A stretch of 64,000 bases of DNA from a plasmid: the sequence record NZ_CP135254.1. The stretch is one strand, 5' to 3'. The position numbers were made by a program, and so were the translations under genes. Below, in pieces: positions 1 to 32,335 of this stretch (its first letter is position 1; every line of letters begins with the position of its first letter). Under the pieces are notes generated by a model. It was given only the letters and a program-made list of their open reading frames with translations, searched no databases and was not told the origin of the DNA.

Positions 1-245
1 GGCTTTTGTAGATGCTCTGCCTGCAGCTGAAACCGACTGTAATCAGAAAAAAGAAAAGTATCCTTCTGGGCTCCTACGGCTCGCCAGATTCTGATGGTGC
101 AATGCAAGGTCAAATCCTGCAGCTGGCTAAAGTCCGCTATGAGCGAACAGCGGACGTTGGACTTCCCAACCTTACAAGGTAATCTAGTTTGCAAAGTTAG
201 CGACCTCGCGCAGCCGCACTAATAAAAAGAATAGGAACGGTACAA

Positions 246-2999
246 ATGAACTGGATTGGTTCTCGGTGGTGGAAATTCGACTTCCATAATCACACTCCGG
301 CATCGGACGATTATGGAAAAGGCCCTAATCAGGCCCAGTATATGCAGATCACTCATAAAGATTGGCTGCTCAACTACATGCGACAAGGCATCGATTGTGT
401 CGCTGTCACGGACCATAATTCAGGCGCTTGGATTGATCCGCTCAAGCATGCACTCAAGGAACTGGCATCTGAGAGTCATGAAGATTATCGACCACTCTAC
501 TTATTCCCTGGTGTTGAGCTTACTGTTCAGGGGAATATCCATATTCTGGCCATTTTCGGAGAAGACAAGACAACCTCTGATATCGACTCACTGCTTGGTG
601 CGGTCAGGTATCGCGCCACCAAAGGAAAGAGCGACGGCTGCTCTGAATGCTCGGCAGTTGAGGTGATCGACGAAATTGCTAGGTCAGGAGGGCTTGCAAT
701 ACCTGCTCATGTAGATCAGGTTAGCGGACTTTTTACGGTCTGTACGGGCAACACACTAGAGCAGGTGCTTGACAACAAATGTGTTTTTGCTATGGAGGTA
801 ACGGACCTTGCTAAAGCAAAACCGCAGCTCTACATTAGCAAGAATTTGAATTGGGCAGAGATTCTTGGAACCGATTCCCATCATCCGTCCGGTACCGGAA
901 ATCAACGCTATCCGGGTAGCCATTTCACTTGGGTAAAAATGTCGGAGCCATCTTATGACGGATTACGGCTGGCGCTCATTGATGGTGCTCTTTCACTGAA
1001 GCGGTCGGACAACTTCACTGGTGACCCCAATATCCATGGACAACTTGCCATCGAAAGTATCGTGGTTGATGATGCGAAGTACTTAGGGCGAGGGCAATCT
1101 TTATCTTGTCAACTGAACCCCTGGCTCAACACTATCATTGGTGGACGAGGCACTGGGAAATCGACATCGTTGGAATTCCTGCGGATTGCTCTTAAACGAA
1201 AGGGAGAAATCCCCAAGAGCCTTGAAAAGGAATTTACCAAATACAGTCAAACTTCGAAAGACCGCCAAGATGAAGGGCTGTTAAAAGATTCCACGAAAAT
1301 AACTGTAGGCTTTCGAAAAGACGGTGGCCGTTTCCGAATCACCTGGTCTAATACCGACGACATATACAGCATCGAGGAAGAGACCGCTCCCGGAGTCTGG
1401 TGTGCTTCCGAGGGAGACATAGCACAACGATTTCCTGTCAGGATTTACAGCCAGAAACAGATATTCGAATTGGCAAAGCATCCCCAAGCACTCTTGCAAG
1501 TTGTCGATGATGCCGCGGTGGTCAATCATCGTGATTGGCAGCTTAAGTGGGATGAACTGGTTTCCAAATATTTCTCGCTTCGCGCCCAAGAGCGTGAAGT
1601 TCAGACCGGGCTTCAGGAGGAATCGGTAACCAAAGGTCAGCTTGAAGACGTCAAACGCAAACTCGATGTTTTTGAAAAGGCGGGCCACGCGGATGTCCTT
1701 AAGGCTTACCAACTCAGACAGAACCAGAGTAAGGCTATGGACTCTTGGGTAACGACTTGGGAGGGTTCCGCCGAACAGGTCCGAGATATTTCTGGAAGAC
1801 TGCTGCCAGCAGAATTGGATCTACAATATTTCGACATTGGGAATGCGGATGACAAAGAACTCTTCGATACCATCAAGGGCATCCGTGCGACGTTTGAGAA
1901 GCTTCAGACAGAGATGAACTCGATCGCGCAGCGGATTGATGATGTAAAGAACTCATGGAATCAAACTCGGTCAGACTTGGGAATATCGAAAAGAATTACA
2001 GCGGCGAGCCATGAATACACCGGCCTCCTCGGTCAACTCAGCGCAGCAGACGCAGGTGATCCATCTGCATATGGTGTTCTGGTTAAGCAGCGACAAGATT
2101 TCGAAGATAAGCTCAAGGGATTCGACAAAAAGAGAGAAACTCTTGCGCAGCATCAGAAGAGCGCGGAAGAATACTTGGTCAAGCTCCATGAGCATCGAGC
2201 ATTGATAACCAAGCTCCGTGAGGACTTTCTCAAGGATACCCTCGTCGGCAATTCATATGTACAGATCAATGTCATTCCGTTTGGAAACAAGCTTACGGTT
2301 GAGGAAGAATTCCGTAACCTGATCGGCCGCAGTAGTGGCGGATTTGACCGCGACATTGGAGTTGTTGACGGGGATGAGGGCTTGCTGGCTTATTTAACGC
2401 AAGACCAATCCAATACTATGGATGATAAAATTGAGAAAATAAAATCATCGCTACTTGCAATCCATGAAAACGATACTGTGGCGGTGGATTCCTGCAAAGA
2501 TCGACGTTTTGTATCCCACATTCAGGGGCTAACTCCGGAACAGATAGATCGAATTCAGTGCTGGTTTCCTGGTGATTCTCTGGATATCAGATATAGCCTC
2601 AAGAACGGCGAGAGTTTCAAACCCGTAGAGCAAGGATCTCCGGGGCAAAAAACGGCGGCTCTCCTTGCATTTATCCTTTCATATGGCAATGAGCCTCTTA
2701 TACTTGATCAGCCTGAGGATGATCTTGATAACCACTTGATCTATGATCTGATCGTAACGCAATTGCGTGAGATCAAACAAAAACGGCAGGTTTTAGTAGT
2801 CACGCACAACGCTAACATCGTCGTGAATGGTGATGCGGAAAACGTCATTGCCCTTGATATTCGGTCTGGCCAAACCAGAATTGTGACGCAAGGGGGTCTT
2901 CAAGAACCTTCCATACGCGATGAGATATGCAGAGTGATGGAAGGTGGCAGAGAGGCCTTTACCCAAAGATATAAACGAATCAATGCAGCAATCACATAG
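246..2999 (+). CDS. PHP-domain phosphoesterase fused to ABC/SMC-like ATPase (candidate single-gene defence protein, Ppl/TrlF-like architecture)
   Basis: N-terminal PHP motifs (FDFHNHT, VAVTDHNS, PGVEL, IPAHVDQ, GTDSHHP). Central Walker A GGRGTGKST. Coiled-coil-rich middle. C-terminal ABC-signature-like SPGQKTAALLAFIL and Walker B/D-loop LILDQPEDDLD, plus VLVVTHNANIV. Confidence 0.8.
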   Translation: MNWIGSRWWKFDFHNHTPASDDYGKGPNQAQYMQITHKDWLLNYMRQGIDCVAVTDHNSGAWIDPLKHALKELASESHEDYRPLYLFPGVELTVQGNIHILAIFGEDKTTSDIDSLLGAVRYRATKGKSDGCSECSAVEVIDEIARSGGLAIPAHVDQVSGLFTVCTGNTLEQVLDNKCVFAMEVTDLAKAKPQLYISKNLNWAEILGTDSHHPSGTGNQRYPGSHFTWVKMSEPSYDGLRLALIDGALSLKRSDNFTGDPNIHGQLAIESIVVDDAKYLGRGQSLSCQLNPWLNTIIGGRGTGKSTSLEFLRIALKRKGEIPKSLEKEFTKYSQTSKDRQDEGLLKDSTKITVGFRKDGGRFRITWSNTDDIYSIEEETAPGVWCASEGDIAQRFPVRIYSQKQIFELAKHPQALLQVVDDAAVVNHRDWQLKWDELVSKYFSLRAQEREVQTGLQEESVTKGQLEDVKRKLDVFEKAGHADVLKAYQLRQNQSKAMDSWVTTWEGSAEQVRDISGRLLPAELDLQYFDIGNADDKELFDTIKGIRATFEKLQTEMNSIAQRIDDVKNSWNQTRSDLGISKRITAASHEYTGLLGQLSAADAGDPSAYGVLVKQRQDFEDKLKGFDKKRETLAQHQKSAEEYLVKLHEHRALITKLREDFLKDTLVGNSYVQINVIPFGNKLTVEEEFRNLIGRSSGGFDRDIGVVDGDEGLLAYLTQDQSNTMDDKIEKIKSSLLAIHENDTVAVDSCKDRRFVSHIQGLTPEQIDRIQCWFPGDSLDIRYSLKNGESFKPVEQGSPGQKTAALLAFILSYGNEPLILDQPEDDLDNHLIYDLIVTQLREIKQKRQVLVVTHNANIVVNGDAENVIALDIRSGQTRIVTQGGLQEPSIRDEICRVMEGGREAFTQRYKRINAAIT

Positions 3000-3104
3000 A
3001 ACGGAGTTGCACTTGAACGGCAATTGCGCTGAGCTCAATTGCCGCCAATGCTTGGTCGTTAATGTCTGCTCCTGGCACAAAGCAGACATACTCAGAAAAG
3101 CAAC

Positions 3105-3701
3105 TCATGAACGAGCATCAGCGTCCTCCATTATCGCTTTCACTCTTAAAATGGTCTGCCGTGTGGTGTCAAATTCGCGGGCGATCGCGCTGATACTCTT
3201 CCCTTCACTAAGACGCAAGAACACCGCTTTCTTTTGTTCGTCATCCAGAGCCGGCGGGCGGCCGAAACGCTTTCCGGATGCCTTAGCCCGCGCAATACCA
3301 GCATGTGTACGTTCAAGTAGCAGATCGCGCTCAAATTCAGCAACCGCCGAGATTACCTGCATTGTCATCTTTCCGGCCGGACTGGTGAGGTCTACCCCTC
3401 CCAGCGCCAGGCAGTGTACCCGTATTTCTGACGCAGAAAGTAGCTCAACGGTTTTTCTGATATCCATGGCGTTTCGCCCGAGGCGATCCAGCTTCGTTAC
3501 GATTAAAACGTCCCCGTTTTCCATTCGATCAAGGAGACGCATAAATCCAGGGCGTTCAGCAGCCGCGACTGAACCACTTATGTACTCTTCAATCAGTCGC
3601 TGGGGTCTGATGGAAAAGCCGGCCGCTTCGATCTCACGACGCTGGTTTTCAGTGTTCTGTTCGAGGGTCGATACCCTGCAGTAGGCAAAAACTCGTGACA
3701 T
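3105..3701 (-). CDS. serine recombinase (resolvase/invertase family)
   Basis: N-terminal YCRVSTLEQ catalytic-serine motif; ~198 aa; C-terminal HTH. Confidence 0.9.
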
Positions 3702-3953
3702 ATAGTTATTTTATGTACGAAATGGATGTACTTATTATAGCGCATGTCCGAAACTAAAAACACTAACTTTCGGACATACTATATCTTACATGTACGAAAC
3801 CGGTCGGTTTTGTACATCCCATATTGTATGCTCTATGTGTTCCACTTAAAGTAATATTATTGTGACCACATAAGTTGTGGCTGGCTGGCAAAGTCAGCAC
3901 TGAATGCCTCCCTGCCCAACCAGTTTATATTGGTATCCGATTTTTCTACTTGC

Positions 3954-4472
3954 CTATTTTCTTTTGGCCGGAAACATCAGCATCAGGGTGTGAACACCGT
4001 TGATATCGATCGTATGGGCGCCTTCCGTGAAAGCCTCAAAAATCCCGACGTCTTTCAGACCGCCCAGTATCGCATCGACGTCAGTTTCTGACAGCTGACG
4101 CGCTGTTTTGTATTCCAACATGTTAGTGTTAGGGTTCGATGCGCGCTCAGACTCGACTTTCATTTTAATTTCGGCAATGACCGCAGGAATATTATCGGTG
4201 TTGAGCTCCAGTGCTCTAGCCTGAATACACGCGGCAAACTCCTTGGGGATTACAAACCACACGGGATATCCCCGCGACAGCGGCATACCTTTACTACCCT
4301 CATCCAGATTACCATTCCAGCGTATGCCGGTACATTCGCTGAAGGGCTGGTTCAGTTCGTCCCGGTAGTTAATGCGGGCGACGGACACGTCCCATTCGCC
4401 CGCATCGTAAAGCACATCTAGCACCTCTACATGGCCTCTGGGGGATAAAACATCTGTGGGTTTTACGTACAT
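3954..4472 (-). CDS. hypothetical protein
   Basis: Open frame with likely start MYVKPTDV; no recognisable domain. Confidence 0.4.
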   Translation of the reverse strand: MYVKPTDVLSPRGHVEVLDVLYDAGEWDVSVARINYRDELNQPFSECTGIRWNGNLDEGSKGMPLSRGYPVWFVIPKEFAACIQARALELNTDNIPAVIAEIKMKVESERASNPNTNMLEYKTARQLSETDVDAILGGLKDVGIFEAFTEGAHTIDINGVHTLMLMFPAKRK

Positions 4473-5179
4473 ATTCTCTCTCCTGTAAGCGTGGATGATA
4501 TACAAATTAGCTATGAATTATAGTTATATTACATAACTAGTTTTTTAGCTAGAATTAATCAGTTGAACGTGAAAAAATTGTCCTCAGCTATGCCAACTAC
4601 CATGCTCTGGAGAAGCAGAAGGGAGCCCGGGAGCAGGTTATCGGGGGAGCCAGTACTGGCTGCGCGACCTAGCAGCTCAGAATGGAGCGAGAACAGTAAA
4701 TAGGGGTCTATTTGGATATCGAAAATTATTCAGCCGAGATACGTCTGGTGAGCAGAGTCTCTTAAATGTAAAGCTAGAGCCTTTCAATAATATAAAGGTT
4801 CATTCATCAAAAAATTAGAAACAGTGCCGACAGTAATGCCTATACATAAGCCCGTAGATCGCGTCTGCCAGTCACTCTGGGATATACCCTAATGTGTCAG
4901 GCTAACGCGCCCTCCAGGCTTGTCCAGCCCCTCGCTTTTCCGAGCTGACTCGCGGTTTCGATTTAACACGGTGGTGGAATAGCCAAGCATGGTAGAGGTC
5001 GTGATCTAACGATTGATTGCACAAGGCACAGGATATCGGCTGAAATGTACCGCCTGGCAATTGATGCTTCATAGAACTATTCATCCGTAAACAGAGTCGC
5101 TAATGCGGCTTTTTTTTGGGGGGACGTTTAGTAGCGGAGGTTTCTATGTCAGGACAAGTCAGGTCGCCTTAGTTACTCA

Positions 5180-5368
5180 ATAAATGAAATCATGTTATAA
5201 TTAAATCATGATTTCATTTATTTTTATGCTATTGTAATTTAAGTCATTATTGTTTTGCATGTTTTACTGAAATCATTAAATCATGATTTAATGTTGTTCC
5301 TTTACCTCAGCTATGTCATAGTTAGCTTAGTTGTAGAACTTGATAATGAAATCATGATTTAATGAAGG
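5180..5368. repeat. iteron/palindrome array (AAATCATGATTT(AATG) units), putative parC centromere/operator of type Ib par locus
   Basis: At least three copies of the palindromic AAATCATGATTT core directly upstream of parA. Confidence 0.5.
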
Positions 5369-6003
5369 GTGATACCATGGGAAAGGTTATATCGATCGTT
5401 GGTCAGAAAGGCGGTGGTTCAAAAAGCACCGAAGCTAGAACGCTTGCTGTTGGATTTTCAGAAGCTGGATGGAAGACGCATCTGGCTGATATAGACACCA
5501 AACAACAAACCTCACTGAAGTGGACAGAACGACGCGAGAAAAGTGGGCTAAGCCCGATAGATTGTGCTCTTTACCGCCGGGTTGAAACTGCTGTCAGGAT
5601 GAAAGATAGCTGTCATTTGCTGATCATCGATGGGCGCCCTGCAGCAGAGACAACGTCACTGGATGTCGCAGATGAATCTGACCTCGTCATTATTACCACG
5701 GGGACTACTATTGATGATCTTGAACCCTCACTTGAACTGGCTCGTGAATTGATAAAGAAGGGGATTGATAAGAGCAAGATTGTCTTTATCGTTTCTAAAT
5801 CACCATCTCAATCGCAGGGCGAAAAAGCTCAGGAAACAATCAAAGCGTGGGGTTATAAAGTAATCAATACAGTCATCCCCTTCAAAACCAGTTACGGCGA
5901 AGCTCTTGATACTGGACGGGCATTACATGAAACGCCATTCAAATCGTTGAATGAGACTGCAAAACAAATGATTGAAGAGATTCATGATATAATTAATTCA
6001 TGA
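5362..6003 (+). CDS. parA: ParA-family partition ATPase (small type Ib)
   Basis: Deviant Walker A VGQKGGGSKST; ~210 aa. Confidence 0.9.
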   Translation: MKGDTMGKVISIVGQKGGGSKSTEARTLAVGFSEAGWKTHLADIDTKQQTSLKWTERREKSGLSPIDCALYRRVETAVRMKDSCHLLIIDGRPAAETTSLDVADESDLVIITTGTTIDDLEPSLELARELIKKGIDKSKIVFIVSKSPSQSQGEKAQETIKAWGYKVINTVIPFKTSYGEALDTGRALHETPFKSLNETAKQMIEEIHDIINS

Positions 6004-6035
6004 TAGCATGATTTAACGATATCATTACCCTGAGC

Positions 6036-6275
6036 ATGAGGAAGTTTATGAAAGGCCCTGGTAAATCAATTAAAATTGAGCCCCCGAAAGAGGACGAACC
6101 GACACTGGATGTTACCGGAAAAGGGGCTGTTCCGGATTCGGCTGTCAAACCTATCCAAATCAAAGTTCCGGTGTCGAAACATAAAGAAATGAAGGCATAT
6201 GCAGCAGAGCAGGGGATCTCGATGACCGATATGCTCCTTGCCGGGTATGACATGTACAGAAATAAAATGAAATAA
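6036..6275 (+). CDS. small centromere-binding protein (ParG/RHH-like)
   Basis: 79 aa, immediately after parA; C-terminal ISMTDMLLAGYDMY, RHH-like. Confidence 0.55.
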   Translation: MRKFMKGPGKSIKIEPPKEDEPTLDVTGKGAVPDSAVKPIQIKVPVSKHKEMKAYAAEQGISMTDMLLAGYDMYRNKMK

Positions 6276-6282
6276 TGTTAGC

Positions 6283-6316
6283 ATGACATCATGAAAGTGG
6301 TTTTTCATGATGTCAT
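6283..6316. repeat. perfect 14-bp inverted repeat (ATGACATCATGAAA / TTTCATGATGTCAT), possible bidirectional terminator or extra ParG site
   Basis: Seen directly. Lies between convergent parG-like and umuC stops. A TTTTTT run follows ~14 nt downstream. Confidence 0.4.
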
Positions 6317-6414
6317 TCTTTCATGCGATTTTTTAAGCCTGTCTCTAGCTCCAGAAACCCTCGGTTTTGCACTTCATCGATAATGACACATATGTTTGAG
6401 CGAACCTGAAAAAA

Positions 6415-6445
6415 CATGACTTCATGACTTCATGACTTCATGCTG
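6415..6445. repeat. 4x tandem CATGACTT repeat
   Basis: catgacttcatgacttcatgacttcatgctg, just upstream of the umuC stop. Confidence 0.4.
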
Positions 6446-6449
6446 TTTT

Positions 6450-7724
6450 TTAACAGAGCCTTGCTGACGGAATGTCCGCCCATCTTGTGGTATATGCTGG
6501 CGACAGTAAATCTCGCTTCATCTGCCAGTCAGGAGCGATGCCTCGTCCCGCAAACCAGACTTTCCCAAGTCCTGAATGATTAATCCCGTCCACAACGTTC
6601 ATCAGGGCTTCGCTGTTTGCCCGGGGCTGAACATCATCAAACAGACTCAACTGAGAAACCCCCGCAGGCGTGAAATCGTTCAGCATCACGCCGGCTTTGG
6701 CATAACGGTGCTCGGGGACCCAGATGCGTCCGAGGGCTCTGACGGCAGCGGCGATGATATCCCGCGAGTCTCTGCTCGGGAACGGCAGACTCTCGCTGGC
6801 CATGTTTCCGTAGTAAGGCTCCTTCACGGCAAACGGCGACGTTTTCACAAAGACCGCGATGTGTCTGCAGTACTGCCGCTCACTGCGTAGTTTCTCCGCA
6901 GCACGCTCCGCGTACTGGCAGACAGCCTGGCGCATTGCGTCATATTCCGTGATGCGTTCACCAAAACTCCGGCTGCAGACTATCTGCTGTTTTGGCGGAG
7001 GCGCTTCTTCCAGCGAAATACAGCTTTCTCCGTTGAGTTCCCGGACGGTTCTCTCCAGCACCACGTTGAAATTCTTCCTGATGAATGCTGGATTCGCGCG
7101 CGCCAGCTGCAGTGCTGTGGTGATCCCCATTGTGTTCAGCTTCTTCGAGATCCGGCGCCCAACACCCCATATTTCTTCCACCGGCTGCAGTGAAAGCAGT
7201 TTCTCTGTCCGGCGGGGATTATCCGGGGTCAAAGCCAGTACGCCGCCAAACTGCGGCCACTCTTTGGAAGCCCACTGGGCTGATTTTGCCAGCGTTTTGC
7301 TGGGTCCCATACCGACGCCGATGGTCAGCGCGGTGTGGCGGTGCACATACTCTCGCAACTGGCGCCCAAAATCCTCAAAATCCACGCAGTTGTCGATGCC
7401 GGCGACGTCGAGGAACATCTCATCGATACTGTACTGCTCCACGCGCGGCGCCAGCGCCTCAAGGCAACGCATGACCCGTTCTGACATACTGTGGTACAGC
7501 GAATAATTGCTGGAGAACACGGCCACGTTATGCTTTTCCGCCAGTCCCTTCACCTTAAACCAGGGGGCGCCCATCGGAATACCGATGGCGCGGGCTTCGC
7601 GGCTGCGTGCGATTACGCAGCCGTCATTGTTGCTGAGGACTATCACCGGCCTGTCGCGCAGGTCCGGGCGAAAGACCTTCTCGCAGCTGGCATAGAAGCT
7701 GTTGACGTCAGCCAGGGCAAACAT
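6450..7724 (-). CDS. umuC: Y-family DNA polymerase V subunit UmuC/ImpB
   Basis: MFALADVNSFYASCEKVFRPDLR...; full length 424 aa. Confidence 0.95.
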   Translation of the reverse strand: MFALADVNSFYASCEKVFRPDLRDRPVIVLSNNDGCVIARSREARAIGIPMGAPWFKVKGLAEKHNVAVFSSNYSLYHSMSERVMRCLEALAPRVEQYSIDEMFLDVAGIDNCVDFEDFGRQLREYVHRHTALTIGVGMGPSKTLAKSAQWASKEWPQFGGVLALTPDNPRRTEKLLSLQPVEEIWGVGRRISKKLNTMGITTALQLARANPAFIRKNFNVVLERTVRELNGESCISLEEAPPPKQQIVCSRSFGERITEYDAMRQAVCQYAERAAEKLRSERQYCRHIAVFVKTSPFAVKEPYYGNMASESLPFPSRDSRDIIAAAVRALGRIWVPEHRYAKAGVMLNDFTPAGVSQLSLFDDVQPRANSEALMNVVDGINHSGLGKVWFAGRGIAPDWQMKRDLLSPAYTTRWADIPSARLC

Positions 7725-16349: not shown

Positions 16350-16706
16350 CTATCGCTCAGCCAATACGAAACCGGCATTGGCTGATGCCACAACCGAGAC
16401 TAACACAAATGGCTCGGTACCTGTATTTCGCGCCCCGTGCACTTGGCCCGGTCTTGCCACGGCTATCTCACCTTCCCTGAGGGCACGAACAATCCCATTG
16501 CCCTGAAAGTAATCAGCCATTCCCGACAAAACAGTCCACGTGTCTTGGCCGTGAGGATGAATGTGAGCCGCAATTTCCTGCCCGGGATGGACATGCCAAA
16601 CCACGATAATTGAGTCTCGGGTTTCAAGCACAACGGAACGAATAGGCTCGCCTTCGGACGGCTGAACATACTCGGCTACAGAAAATATTCTCGATTCAAC
16701 AGTCAT
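16350..16706 (-). CDS. cupin-domain protein
   Basis: HVHPGQEIAAHIHPHGQDTW two-His cupin motif. Start chosen at MTVESRIF, just after the HepT stop; the alternative MKTVTT at 16745 overlaps hepT. Confidence 0.55.
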   Translation of the reverse strand: MTVESRIFSVAEYVQPSEGEPIRSVVLETRDSIIVVWHVHPGQEIAAHIHPHGQDTWTVLSGMADYFQGNGIVRALREGEIAVARPGQVHGARNTGTEPFVLVSVVASANAGFVLAER

Positions 16707-17097
16707 CGGAGATCCCTCTTTCACAGTTGTCGTTACGGTCTTCATCGTCGGCATCCTGACGCACGGCGGGCAATTGCTGGAGCAACGCCGGCAGCCATTC
16801 CTGTACCGTCTCCCACACCACATCGAGGTTGATGTCGAAATAGCCGTGAGCCATGCGATTACGCATATTGCGCATGCTGCGCCACGGCACGTCGGCATGC
16901 GCCTGGGTGAACTCGACGTAGCCATCCATCACCTTTGTGGCCGCCTCGCCGATGACGATCAGGCTCATGATGACGGCCTGCTGGGTGCGCTTGTCGGCCA
17001 AGAAGTCGTCCTTGGCCATCCCTTCCACGAAGCTGCGCGCATCGGTTGCGGCCTGCTGAATGTGGTCGAGGTAATCGGGCAGGCGGTTCTCGCTCAT
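16696..17097 (-). CDS. hepT: HepT (DUF86) toxin of HepT/MNT toxin-antitoxin pair
   Basis: 133 aa; RNMRNRMAHGY motif (Rx4HxY). Confidence 0.8.
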   Translation of the reverse strand: MSENRLPDYLDHIQQAATDARSFVEGMAKDDFLADKRTQQAVIMSLIVIGEAATKVMDGYVEFTQAHADVPWRSMRNMRNRMAHGYFDINLDVVWETVQEWLPALLQQLPAVRQDADDEDRNDNCERGISDDC

Positions 17098-17390
17098 ATC
17101 GGTTGCGCCTCCGCGAGCACCTTGGCCCGGAACTTCGGCGGCAGGTCGCCGGGAGTCAGCAGATCGACGTCAACGCCGAGCAGCGATTTCAGTTCTTCTT
17201 CCAAATCGCCCAAGTCCAACAACGTGGCACCGGGCAGCGCATCGACCAACAGGTCGAGGTCGCTGCCATCCCGGTCGGTGCCATGCAGCACCGAGCCGAA
17301 GACGCGCGGGTTCGCGGCGCGAAAGCGGCCTACCGCTTCACGCACTGCGCTTCGCTTCATGTCAAGCACAACAGACGGTCGCATGCGCAT
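17094..17390 (-). CDS. mntA: MNT nucleotidyltransferase antitoxin
   Basis: VFGSVLHGTDRDGSDLDLLVD motif; overlaps the hepT start. Confidence 0.8.
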   Translation of the reverse strand: MRMRPSVVLDMKRSAVREAVGRFRAANPRVFGSVLHGTDRDGSDLDLLVDALPGATLLDLGDLEEELKSLLGVDVDLLTPGDLPPKFRAKVLAEAQPI

Positions 17391-31348: not shown

Positions 31349-32335
31349 ATGGAGATGGGTATGAAGATTTTTTGCGATGATGGTTCTACAAACGTGAAAC
31401 TTGCCTGGTTTGAAGACAAGACACTGAAAAGTGCTGTGTCAGTGAATTCTTTTCGCCATAACTGGAAAGTCGAGGGCTTGGGCAGCAGCCGTACCTATAA
31501 CTACCTGCTCGATGGCCGAAAATATACCTATGACCCGGTCAGCGAAGCAGCGATCAACACGACGCACATTGAGTACCAGTACTCCGATACAAACGTGTTG
31601 GCTGTTCACCACGCATTACTGAACAGTGGGATTGAACCCCAGGATATTGATCTCACCGTTACGTTACCTATCAGCGAGTTTTACACAGCTGACTGCCAGA
31701 AAAACATGCTCAACATCGAGAGGAAAATTAGCAACCTGATGCGGGAAGTCACCCTGAACAAAGGGGGCACTTTTACCATCAAAAGCGTTGAAGTTATGCC
31801 TGAATCACTTCCAGCTGTCTTTACTCGCCTGGTTGCTGATAATGTTGGCCAGTACGAAAAATCATTGGTTATCGATCTCGGTGGTACGACCCTAGACGTC
31901 GGGGTTATTGTTGGTCAGTTTGAAGACGTATCGGCAGTACATGGTAATCCGGATATCGGTGTATCAATGGTCACGAAAGCCACGCTGACAGCGCTGAAAA
32001 TGGCCAGCAGTGATACCAGTCCAATGATTGCTGACGAGCTGATTAAAAACAGGCTGAACCAGGATTTTGTAGGGCAAGTTGTAAATGAGGCTGCAAAACA
32101 GAATCTGGTACTGGATACCATTGAGACAGCGATACATAAGCTGGGCGAGCTTGTTGTTGATGATTTGCTGCAGTATCGAAACGTAAACCGCGTATACATT
32201 GTCGGCGGCGGCGCAGCACTTATTGCCGATGCTGTTCGTAAGGCATGGAGCCACCTCGGCGAAAAAGTTGTTCTTATGGACGAACCTCAGACAGCGCTGG
32301 TCCAGGCTATTGCACGCTTCAAAGCGGAGGAGTAA
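31349..32335 (+). CDS. parM: actin-like partition ATPase ParM/StbA
   Basis: KIFCDDGSTNVKLAW...NVLAVHHALL...DLGGTTLD...YIVGGGAAL motifs as in R1 ParM. Confidence 0.9.
   Translation: MEMGMKIFCDDGSTNVKLAWFEDKTLKSAVSVNSFRHNWKVEGLGSSRTYNYLLDGRKYTYDPVSEAAINTTHIEYQYSDTNVLAVHHALLNSGIEPQDIDLTVTLPISEFYTADCQKNMLNIERKISNLMREVTLNKGGTFTIKSVEVMPESLPAVFTRLVADNVGQYEKSLVIDLGGTTLDVGVIVGQFEDVSAVHGNPDIGVSMVTKATLTALKMASSDTSPMIADELIKNRLNQDFVGQVVNEAAKQNLVLDTIETAIHKLGELVVDDLLQYRNVNRVYIVGGGAALIADAVRKAWSHLGEKVVLMDEPQTALVQAIARFKAEE

Follow-up and report, generated by a model that had tools for sequence, protein, structure and literature searches.

Gao et al. (2020) included Ppl among the anti-phage systems that they reported; phage T7 is restricted by it, and gp130 of phage Bas63 counteracts it (PMC11482910). 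As outlined in a passage of PMC12904381, the Escherichia coli protein is a single-stranded DNA (ssDNA) 3′-5′ exonuclease that is inhibited by nucleoside triphosphates (NTPs) on both of its domains and activated by NTP depletion and 3′-OH ends, and the same passage has Ppl detecting the 3′-OH ends made by phage homing endonucleases. PMC13434339 and a Druantia preprint both cite Xu et al. (Mol Cell 2026;86:180-193), the primary source for this mechanism. Here, we describe a gene of the same family in a 64,000-nucleotide stretch of plasmid DNA (sequence record NZ_CP135254.1; hereafter the window), which encodes a protein of 917 amino acids (aa) at positions 246-2999 on the + strand. Like Ppl, this protein comprises, collinearly and from end to end, a PHP domain, the N-terminal lobe of an ABC-type ATPase, a coiled coil, and the C-terminal ATPase lobe. 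The two proteins share all motifs, including an unusual DQPEDDLD Walker B sequence, and each is the product of a single gene on mobile elements or plasmids. They differ in setting, as Ppl adjoins pifC/pifA on F-type plasmids, whereas the present gene lies beside a type II restriction-modification (R-M) pair and its relatives are found in R-M and bacteriophage exclusion (BREX) operons. Collectively, the data point to an anti-phage gene of the Ppl family (NCBI "TrlF family") that stands alone, part of the cargo of a conjugative Klebsiella plasmid with KPC-2, where a type II R-M pair adjoins it, a reading to which we assign a probability of about 0.8.

The Locus Encodes an Intact TrlF/Ppl-Family Protein

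Coordinates given here are window positions, with the strand as in the window, and the loci of relatives were compared with window 1-5400. The open reading frame (ORF) of the 917-aa protein begins with an ATG that is preceded by AGGA 8 nucleotides upstream, and the annotation pipeline PGAP picks the same start. An identical protein, WP_075606932.1, is named "TrlF family AAA-like ATPase" in RefSeq and occurs on KPC-2 IncFII/IncU Klebsiella plasmids. Indeed, the first 5.3 kb of the window are 100% identical to conjugative plasmids of this type, such as NZ_CP084988.1, in which plasmid base 32001 corresponds to window base 1. An earlier note on this DNA had proposed that the locus encodes a fusion of a PHP phosphoesterase to an ABC/SMC-like ATPase with a role in defense. 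Its coordinates and sizes all proved correct, and the ORF, alignment, profile matches, and AlphaFold2 (AF2) models confirm that this fusion is genuine and that the gene is intact, joining a metal-dependent nuclease domain to an SMC-like ATPase.

On the NCBIfam model of the TrlF family (NF045780) the protein scores 640.6 bits against a cutoff of 350, with residues 5-912 aligned to profile positions 2-943 of 944; nothing sets it apart from this family, which is its own. The Ppl hidden Markov model (HMM) of PADLOC (PDLC02208), a source to which the earlier note had pointed, is likewise matched end to end (residues 4-912 on positions 3-892 of 894; E 3.7e-156, 519.7 bits), this being an HMM match of the protein and not a call by the PADLOC pipeline. 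Both names that the note had given, Ppl and TrlF-like ATPase, are therefore right, as the TrlF cutoff is passed and the alignments to the Ppl models run end to end. The Spaf_1101 family (NCBIfam NF045781) also consists of related proteins with PHP and ABC ATPase domains, but here the match is partial: at 278.6 bits it falls below the cutoff of 475, and its best-scoring part is confined to the C-terminal head (residues 615-911). To gather relatives, 1.84 billion representatives were searched exhaustively with phmmer, yielding 1281 clusters at E <= 1e-30. A literature search for "TrlF" returned spectroscopy papers or nothing, leaving the origin of the name untraced.

A distant member of the family is found in the P2-like Yersinia phage vB_YenM_42.18 (fetched locus 3992-6610), where the gene lies between replication gene A and portal gene Q and is annotated "chromosome partition protein Smc"; its product is ~21-38% identical in separate local alignments. 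This homologue was considered as a possible Ppl and rejected, since it belongs to the TrlF family but reaches 126.5 bits, much further from Ppl than the 917-aa protein.

The N-Terminal PHP Domain Harbors a Complete Metal Site

Residues 1-262 (window 246-1031, + strand) form a PHP metal-dependent phosphoesterase/nuclease domain. The motifs of this domain are DFHNHT (D12, H14, and H16), TDHN (D56 and H57), GVELT (E91), HILA (H99), PAHVD (H155), and GTDSHH (D210 and H212), which together provide the full metal-binding set of HxH, DH, E, H, H, and DxH. In an alignment of 54 sequences with a mean identity of 40%, all ten of these metal ligands are invariant, and the invariant columns coincide exactly with the functional residues, namely the PHP ligands and the ABC motifs described below.

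The fold is supported by profile and structure comparisons. A profile of residues 1-262, built from 19 relatives, matched solved PHP proteins in the PDB, including 9etk (1.5e-7), RNase AM (7ug9, 1.1e-6), TM0559 (2anu), 3e0f, and EndoQ. Among the 19 relatives, seven match Pfam PHP and nine match PHP_C. The AF2 model of the domain has a predicted local distance difference test score (pLDDT) of 95.1 and a predicted template modeling score (pTM) of 0.92, and a Foldseek search with this model returned EndoQ (TM score 0.66, E 7e-10), several PHP phosphoesterases, RNase AM, and the PHP domain of Pol III alpha. PHP-related NCBIfam matches of the protein are weak, at 45.8 bits for the CehA/McbA metallohydrolases (cutoff 80) and 18.7 bits for RNase RNM (cutoff 375). 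The claim that the PHP domain retains all of its His, Asp, and Glu motifs is thus borne out by the invariance of the ten ligands and by the profile and Foldseek matches.

The ATPase Head Is Split by a Short Coiled Coil

The rest of the protein adopts the fold of an ABC/SMC-type ATPase head. Its N-terminal lobe (residues ~267-427; window 1044-1526, + strand) contains the Walker A motif (GGRGTGKST; G299-S306) and the Q-loop (YSQ; Q403), and is followed by an antiparallel coiled-coil insert (residues ~428-665; window 1527-2240, + strand). The C-terminal lobe (residues ~666-917; window 2241-2996, + strand) then supplies the signature S798-P-G-Q-K, the Walker B D821-Q822-P-E824 and D-loop DDLD in the string LILDQPEDDLD, and the H-loop H854 in VVTHN. 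All the elements of an ABC-type NTPase, Walker A, Q-loop, signature, Walker B, and H-loop, are accordingly present C terminal to the PHP domain, and G299, G302, G304, K305, S306, Q403, S798, D821-Q822-P823-E824, and H854 are invariant. In the full-length AF2 model (pLDDT 88.8, pTM 0.72) long helices (residues 428-665) divide the head in two, and the top PDB matches found by Foldseek are the heads, with coiled coils, of SMC, MukB, Wadjet JetC, Rad50, and RecN. The ATPase as first described, with Walker A, an SPGQK signature, Walker B/D-loop, and a coiled coil, is thus recovered in full, as invariant motifs on an SMC/Rad50-like fold. The same Foldseek search found no solved Ppl-like structure among PDB entries released up to April 2026. 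A PDB search by sequence recovered ABC-F and Rad50 fragments only; the top match, PoxtA, shares the LDQP motif, and we take the PoxtA entries with this motif to be an engineered E-to-Q mutant.

The Walker B sequence D-Q-P-E (residues 821-824; window 2706-2717) has a Gln in place of the catalytic Glu of ABC proteins. This is a property of the family: DQPE is found in 257 of the 257 family sequences with a recognizable motif, and also in bona fide Ppl. An E-to-Q change at this position in ABC ATPases traps the nucleotide-bound state. The family-wide Gln fits a head that would mainly bind or sense nucleotide rather than cycle ATP fast.

The arrangement of a coiled-coil-split ABC head coupled to a nuclease recalls SbcCD/Mre11-Rad50, Wadjet JetC, and Lamassu LmuB, the HMM of the last giving a weak match (1.4e-7). 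However, in those systems the nuclease is a separate Mre11, TOPRIM, or Cap4 subunit, whereas here it is the fused PHP domain, and the coiled coil is short, at ~240 residues, lacks a zinc hook or hinge, and is not accompanied by kleisin or accessory subunits. Specifically, there is not a single Cys in residues 428-665, so that a Rad50-type zinc hook is absent; neither the CxxC hook nor the separate Mre11-type calcineurin-like nuclease that define SbcCD/Mre11-Rad50 is present. OLD, Gabija GajA, PARIS AriA, and Septu PtuA also use an ABC ATPase as a defense sensor, and NTP-level sensing has been reported for Gabija and Septu. In contrast to these proteins, the one described here has no TOPRIM or HNH partner, and its matches to the group cover only the Walker A or C-terminal motifs, at E 1e-4 to 1e-7; those to OLD, GajA, and AriA, which pair the ABC ATPase with a TOPRIM nuclease, are weak partial ATPase matches of 1e-5 to 1e-7.

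The resemblance to SMC, Rad50, RecN, and JetC, which are the closest structural neighbors of the head and coiled coil, raises the alternative that the protein is a nuclease for DNA repair or hairpin processing, equivalent to SbcCD or Mre11-Rad50 in fused form, and aids maintenance of a plasmid on which umuDC and par adjoin it. A weak PHROG match to SbcC-like proteins (3.3e-6) and the role of PHP domains as proofreading exonucleases in polymerases would agree with such a function. We regard it as highly improbable, given the missing zinc hook and Mre11-type phosphoesterase, the movement of the gene on its own, unlinked to repair genes in its other contexts (see next section), a distribution like that of accessory cargo, with the allele present in 17 of 5426 complete E. 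coli genomes, and a G+C content of 47.7% for the gene, compared with 53.4% for the window.

The Gene Moves Alone and Recurs in Defense-Type Neighborhoods

Comparison by BLASTN of window 1-5400 with the chromosomal copies in E. coli shows that only positions 129-3079 are common, at 98% nucleotide identity, and with the Dethiosulfovibrio locus the ORF alone is common, at 82% nucleotide identity. Thus, judged from these alignments, the mobile unit is the gene alone, at window 129-3079. It includes a 117-bp leader (129-245, + strand), whose first base is where the identity to the E. coli copies begins and which presumably contains the native promoter and ribosome-binding site. At its other end is an 80-bp conserved trailer (3000-3079, + strand), delimited by BLASTN, in which a hairpin with a 13-bp stem lies at 3018-3044. 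In keeping with a single gene that has no conserved partner, the neighbors differ in every context looked at.

These contexts are of a recurrent kind. In E. coli, the copies are located at the end of Mu-like prophages, adjoining the tail-fiber invertase, and the Proteus copy follows the tail-tip genes where a lambdoid prophage ends. The copies in Dethiosulfovibrio and Prosthecochloris lie between hsdM and hsdS in type I R-M operons, and that of Sphaerochaeta is in a BREX locus, between the methyltransferase and the downstream genes. A 37.6%-identical relative on an E. coli F-type plasmid follows genes for a DEAD helicase and an N6-methylase, while the gene in the window sits beside a type II restriction endonuclease and methyltransferase. 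Seven independent genomic settings therefore lend support to the defense role first proposed for the gene. Proteins 83-88% identical to its product are encoded in Acidithiobacillus, Dethiosulfovibrio (Synergistota), Sphaerochaeta (Spirochaetota), Prosthecochloris (Chlorobiota), and Proteus, and this level of identity, together with the 82% nucleotide identity in Dethiosulfovibrio, points to very recent transfer of a single-gene cassette across phyla.

Some copies are disrupted. On the Klebsiella plasmids CP052160.1, CP052145.1, and CP052165.1 the gene is either interrupted, by IS26 in at least CP052145.1, or truncated after residue 498, and one E. coli chromosome has an IS3 insertion in the gene.

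The Protein Belongs to a Sister Clade of Characterized Ppl

To calibrate the Ppl scores we used WP_000233113.1, a protein named ppl by PGAP and encoded next to pifC/pifA on an F-type plasmid, which reaches 1330.5 bits on the NCBIfam Ppl model. On the E. coli plasmid pCY706 (fetched locus 227-7673), the bona fide ppl is situated ~1.5 kb downstream of pifC and of a P-loop NTPase gene that is presumably pifA, the pif genes being the T7-exclusion locus of the F plasmid. Two small, oppositely oriented genes separate pif from ppl there, and the whole forms a small defense cluster close to the replication genes of this F-type (IncFIA/IncFIC) plasmid.

Measured against this standard, and in several other respects, there are points that weigh against our reading of the 917-aa protein as a Ppl-family anti-phage nuclease. 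On the NCBIfam Ppl equivalog model (NF042955) it aligns over its full length (5-912 on 1-882) but scores 625.8 bits, short of the cutoff of 1000. Its identity to WP_000233113.1 is low, at 30% over 99% of the length (E 8e-124), although every catalytic motif is common to the two; the 270 closest relatives collected are similarly ~25-46% identical to that protein (median 29.5%), and the 150 nearest 50%-identity representatives include no Ppl equivalog. With only ~30% identity, the trigger and the substrate could differ from those of Ppl. A full-length Pfam scan, a check put forward in the earlier note, gave no match of the protein to PHP (PF02811), so the PHP assignment rests on the domain profile, the Pfam matches of relatives, and the AF2 and Foldseek results. 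A scan for promoters and terminators stayed at background level, with no convincing promoter upstream of the gene. In addition, phenotype and biochemistry have been reported for E. coli Ppl, whereas the clade described here is known from sequences, and the account of the Ppl mechanism that we use derives from one sentence of a review and two citing papers.

The bit score below the cutoff and the ~30% identity indicate that the protein is a member of a sister clade and not Ppl itself, and the identity range of the 270 relatives shows that this sister clade is large and that both clades belong to one family. Since all catalytic and nucleotide-binding residues are common to the two proteins, we infer the same basic mechanism, and an NTP-inhibited 3′-5′ ssDNA exonuclease of the Ppl type is, by analogy, the most likely activity. 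The protein would then be a single-chain analogue of a nuclease-plus-Rad50 machine, in which the N-terminal PHP domain, with its complete metal site, would serve as the nuclease effector and the SMC/Rad50-like ABC head, with its short coiled coil, as the module that senses nucleotide and DNA. In an uninfected cell, bound NTPs would keep the enzyme off. A phage that drains the NTP pool and makes DNA with free 3′-OH ends or overhangs would release it, and the PHP domain would then degrade ssDNA in the 3′-5′ direction, stopping phage replication. A probable anti-phage function is supported by the genomic contexts described above; the phenotype itself is known for E. coli Ppl.

Given its divergence from Ppl, the gene could also serve in defense with the same architecture but respond to another trigger or act on another target, such as incoming plasmid or conjugative ssDNA or another DNA-end structure, in which case it would act mainly in competition between plasmids. 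The ~30% identity and the large, separate clade agree with this, as does the distribution of the family, which is matched in 1170 of 72,556 plasmid records, 845 of the 1170 being conjugative. Conjugation, moreover, would bring in ssDNA with a free 3′-OH, a substrate of the type that a passage of PMC12904381 ascribes to Ppl. On the other side, the same allele is found on chromosomes at the ends of prophages and in R-M and BREX operons, which argues for a general anti-phage role, and all catalytic and nucleotide-binding motifs are those of Ppl. We therefore consider a different target unlikely. A broader proposal, that of a distinct TrlF clade that spread very recently as a single gene over at least five phyla (83-98% protein identity), perhaps with another trigger or target such as conjugative or plasmid ssDNA, and in which the DQPE "EQ-type" Walker B would make the head purely a sensor of NTP levels, is one that we hold as doubtful but conceivable.

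The Neighboring Genes Are Not Part of the System

Downstream of the Ppl-family gene, the order is serine recombinase, 172-aa ORF, parA, and umuDC (polymerase V/Y-family polymerase), and the par and umuDC neighbors named in the earlier note were found where expected. The recombinase, of the resolvase/invertase type and 198 aa long, is encoded at 3105-3701 on the − strand and is identified by PF00239 Resolvase (4.4e-38), PF02796 HTH_7 (2.1e-11), and a PHROG DNA invertase match (1.2e-65). A palindrome of the form TGTCCGAAA-N14-TTTCGGACA (3745-3776) is positioned 44 bp upstream of where the recombinase gene starts and resembles a crossover site of the res type. In ~145 of 166 related plasmids homology stops close to this palindrome, at window 3829, and a different gene follows the resolvase. 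Beside par and with a res-like site, the resolvase has the look of plasmid backbone, and it does not travel with the defense gene.

The 172-aa hypothetical ORF (3954-4472, − strand) gave no family matches in Pfam, PADLOC, NCBIfam, or PHROG, and its product has 8 homologue clusters only, in 5.8 billion proteins. The earlier note had suggested it as a possible partner, and physical adjacency is what would favor a two-gene system in which this ORF or the resolvase acts as a required partner or antitoxin. However, the conserved cassette stops at 3079, before both neighbors; the 172-aa ORF is absent from the ~145 related plasmids that diverge at 3829 and carry another gene there; its 8 clusters compare with the 1281 found for the ATPase; and the copies in R-M and BREX operons have no such neighbor. 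Collectively, these findings lead us to reject the 172-aa ORF as a partner, and the two-gene explanation, with either neighbor, is scarcely credible.

The same boundaries bear on the proposal of a mobile islet flanked by resolvases. One serine recombinase, that at 3105-3701, is confirmed, but a flanked locus requires the counting of a second one, which lies outside the window, ~3.1 kb upstream of its first base; as a component of the mobile unit the resolvase is excluded, lying outside the shared cassette. According to the RefSeq annotation, the DNA upstream of the window encodes a type II restriction endonuclease, a cytosine methyltransferase, and this second recombinase, all within plasmid bases 28257-31938, directly upstream of window base 1. 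With the type II endonuclease and methyltransferase immediately upstream of the TrlF gene, the three genes make up a defense cluster bracketed by two unrelated serine recombinases. The possibility that these recombinases are a duplicated pair was rejected, as they are 30% identical.

Two further features of the window were noted. Just upstream of parA, at 5179-5366, AATGAAATCATGATTTAAT is repeated in three or four partly palindromic copies, which are probably the par operator or centromere; the Rfam matches in the window were set aside as spurious microRNA hits on these par repeats only. At 16696-17384 (− strand), the RefSeq annotation of an identical plasmid shows a DUF86 (HEPN-like) gene paired with a nucleotidyltransferase gene, probably a HEPN/MNT toxin-antitoxin module.

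Implications

The family, its architecture, and the mechanism of one member are already published, and the exact protein is already family-named in RefSeq, so that the locus opens no new question; what it adds is modest and consists of the divergent clade, its dissemination among phyla in strikingly recent times, and its presence beside an R-M pair on KPC-2 plasmids. The gene is highly mobile, with near-identical copies in Enterobacteriaceae, Acidithiobacillus, Synergistota, Spirochaetota, and Chlorobiota, and wherever the surroundings of a copy were examined (in E. coli, Proteus, Dethiosulfovibrio, Sphaerochaeta, and Prosthecochloris) they proved to be a defense-type neighborhood. With this gene, the cargo of the epidemic KPC-2 carbapenemase plasmids of Klebsiella probably includes an anti-phage nuclease, which has a bearing on phage therapy against KPC-2 Klebsiella strains and on plasmid ecology.

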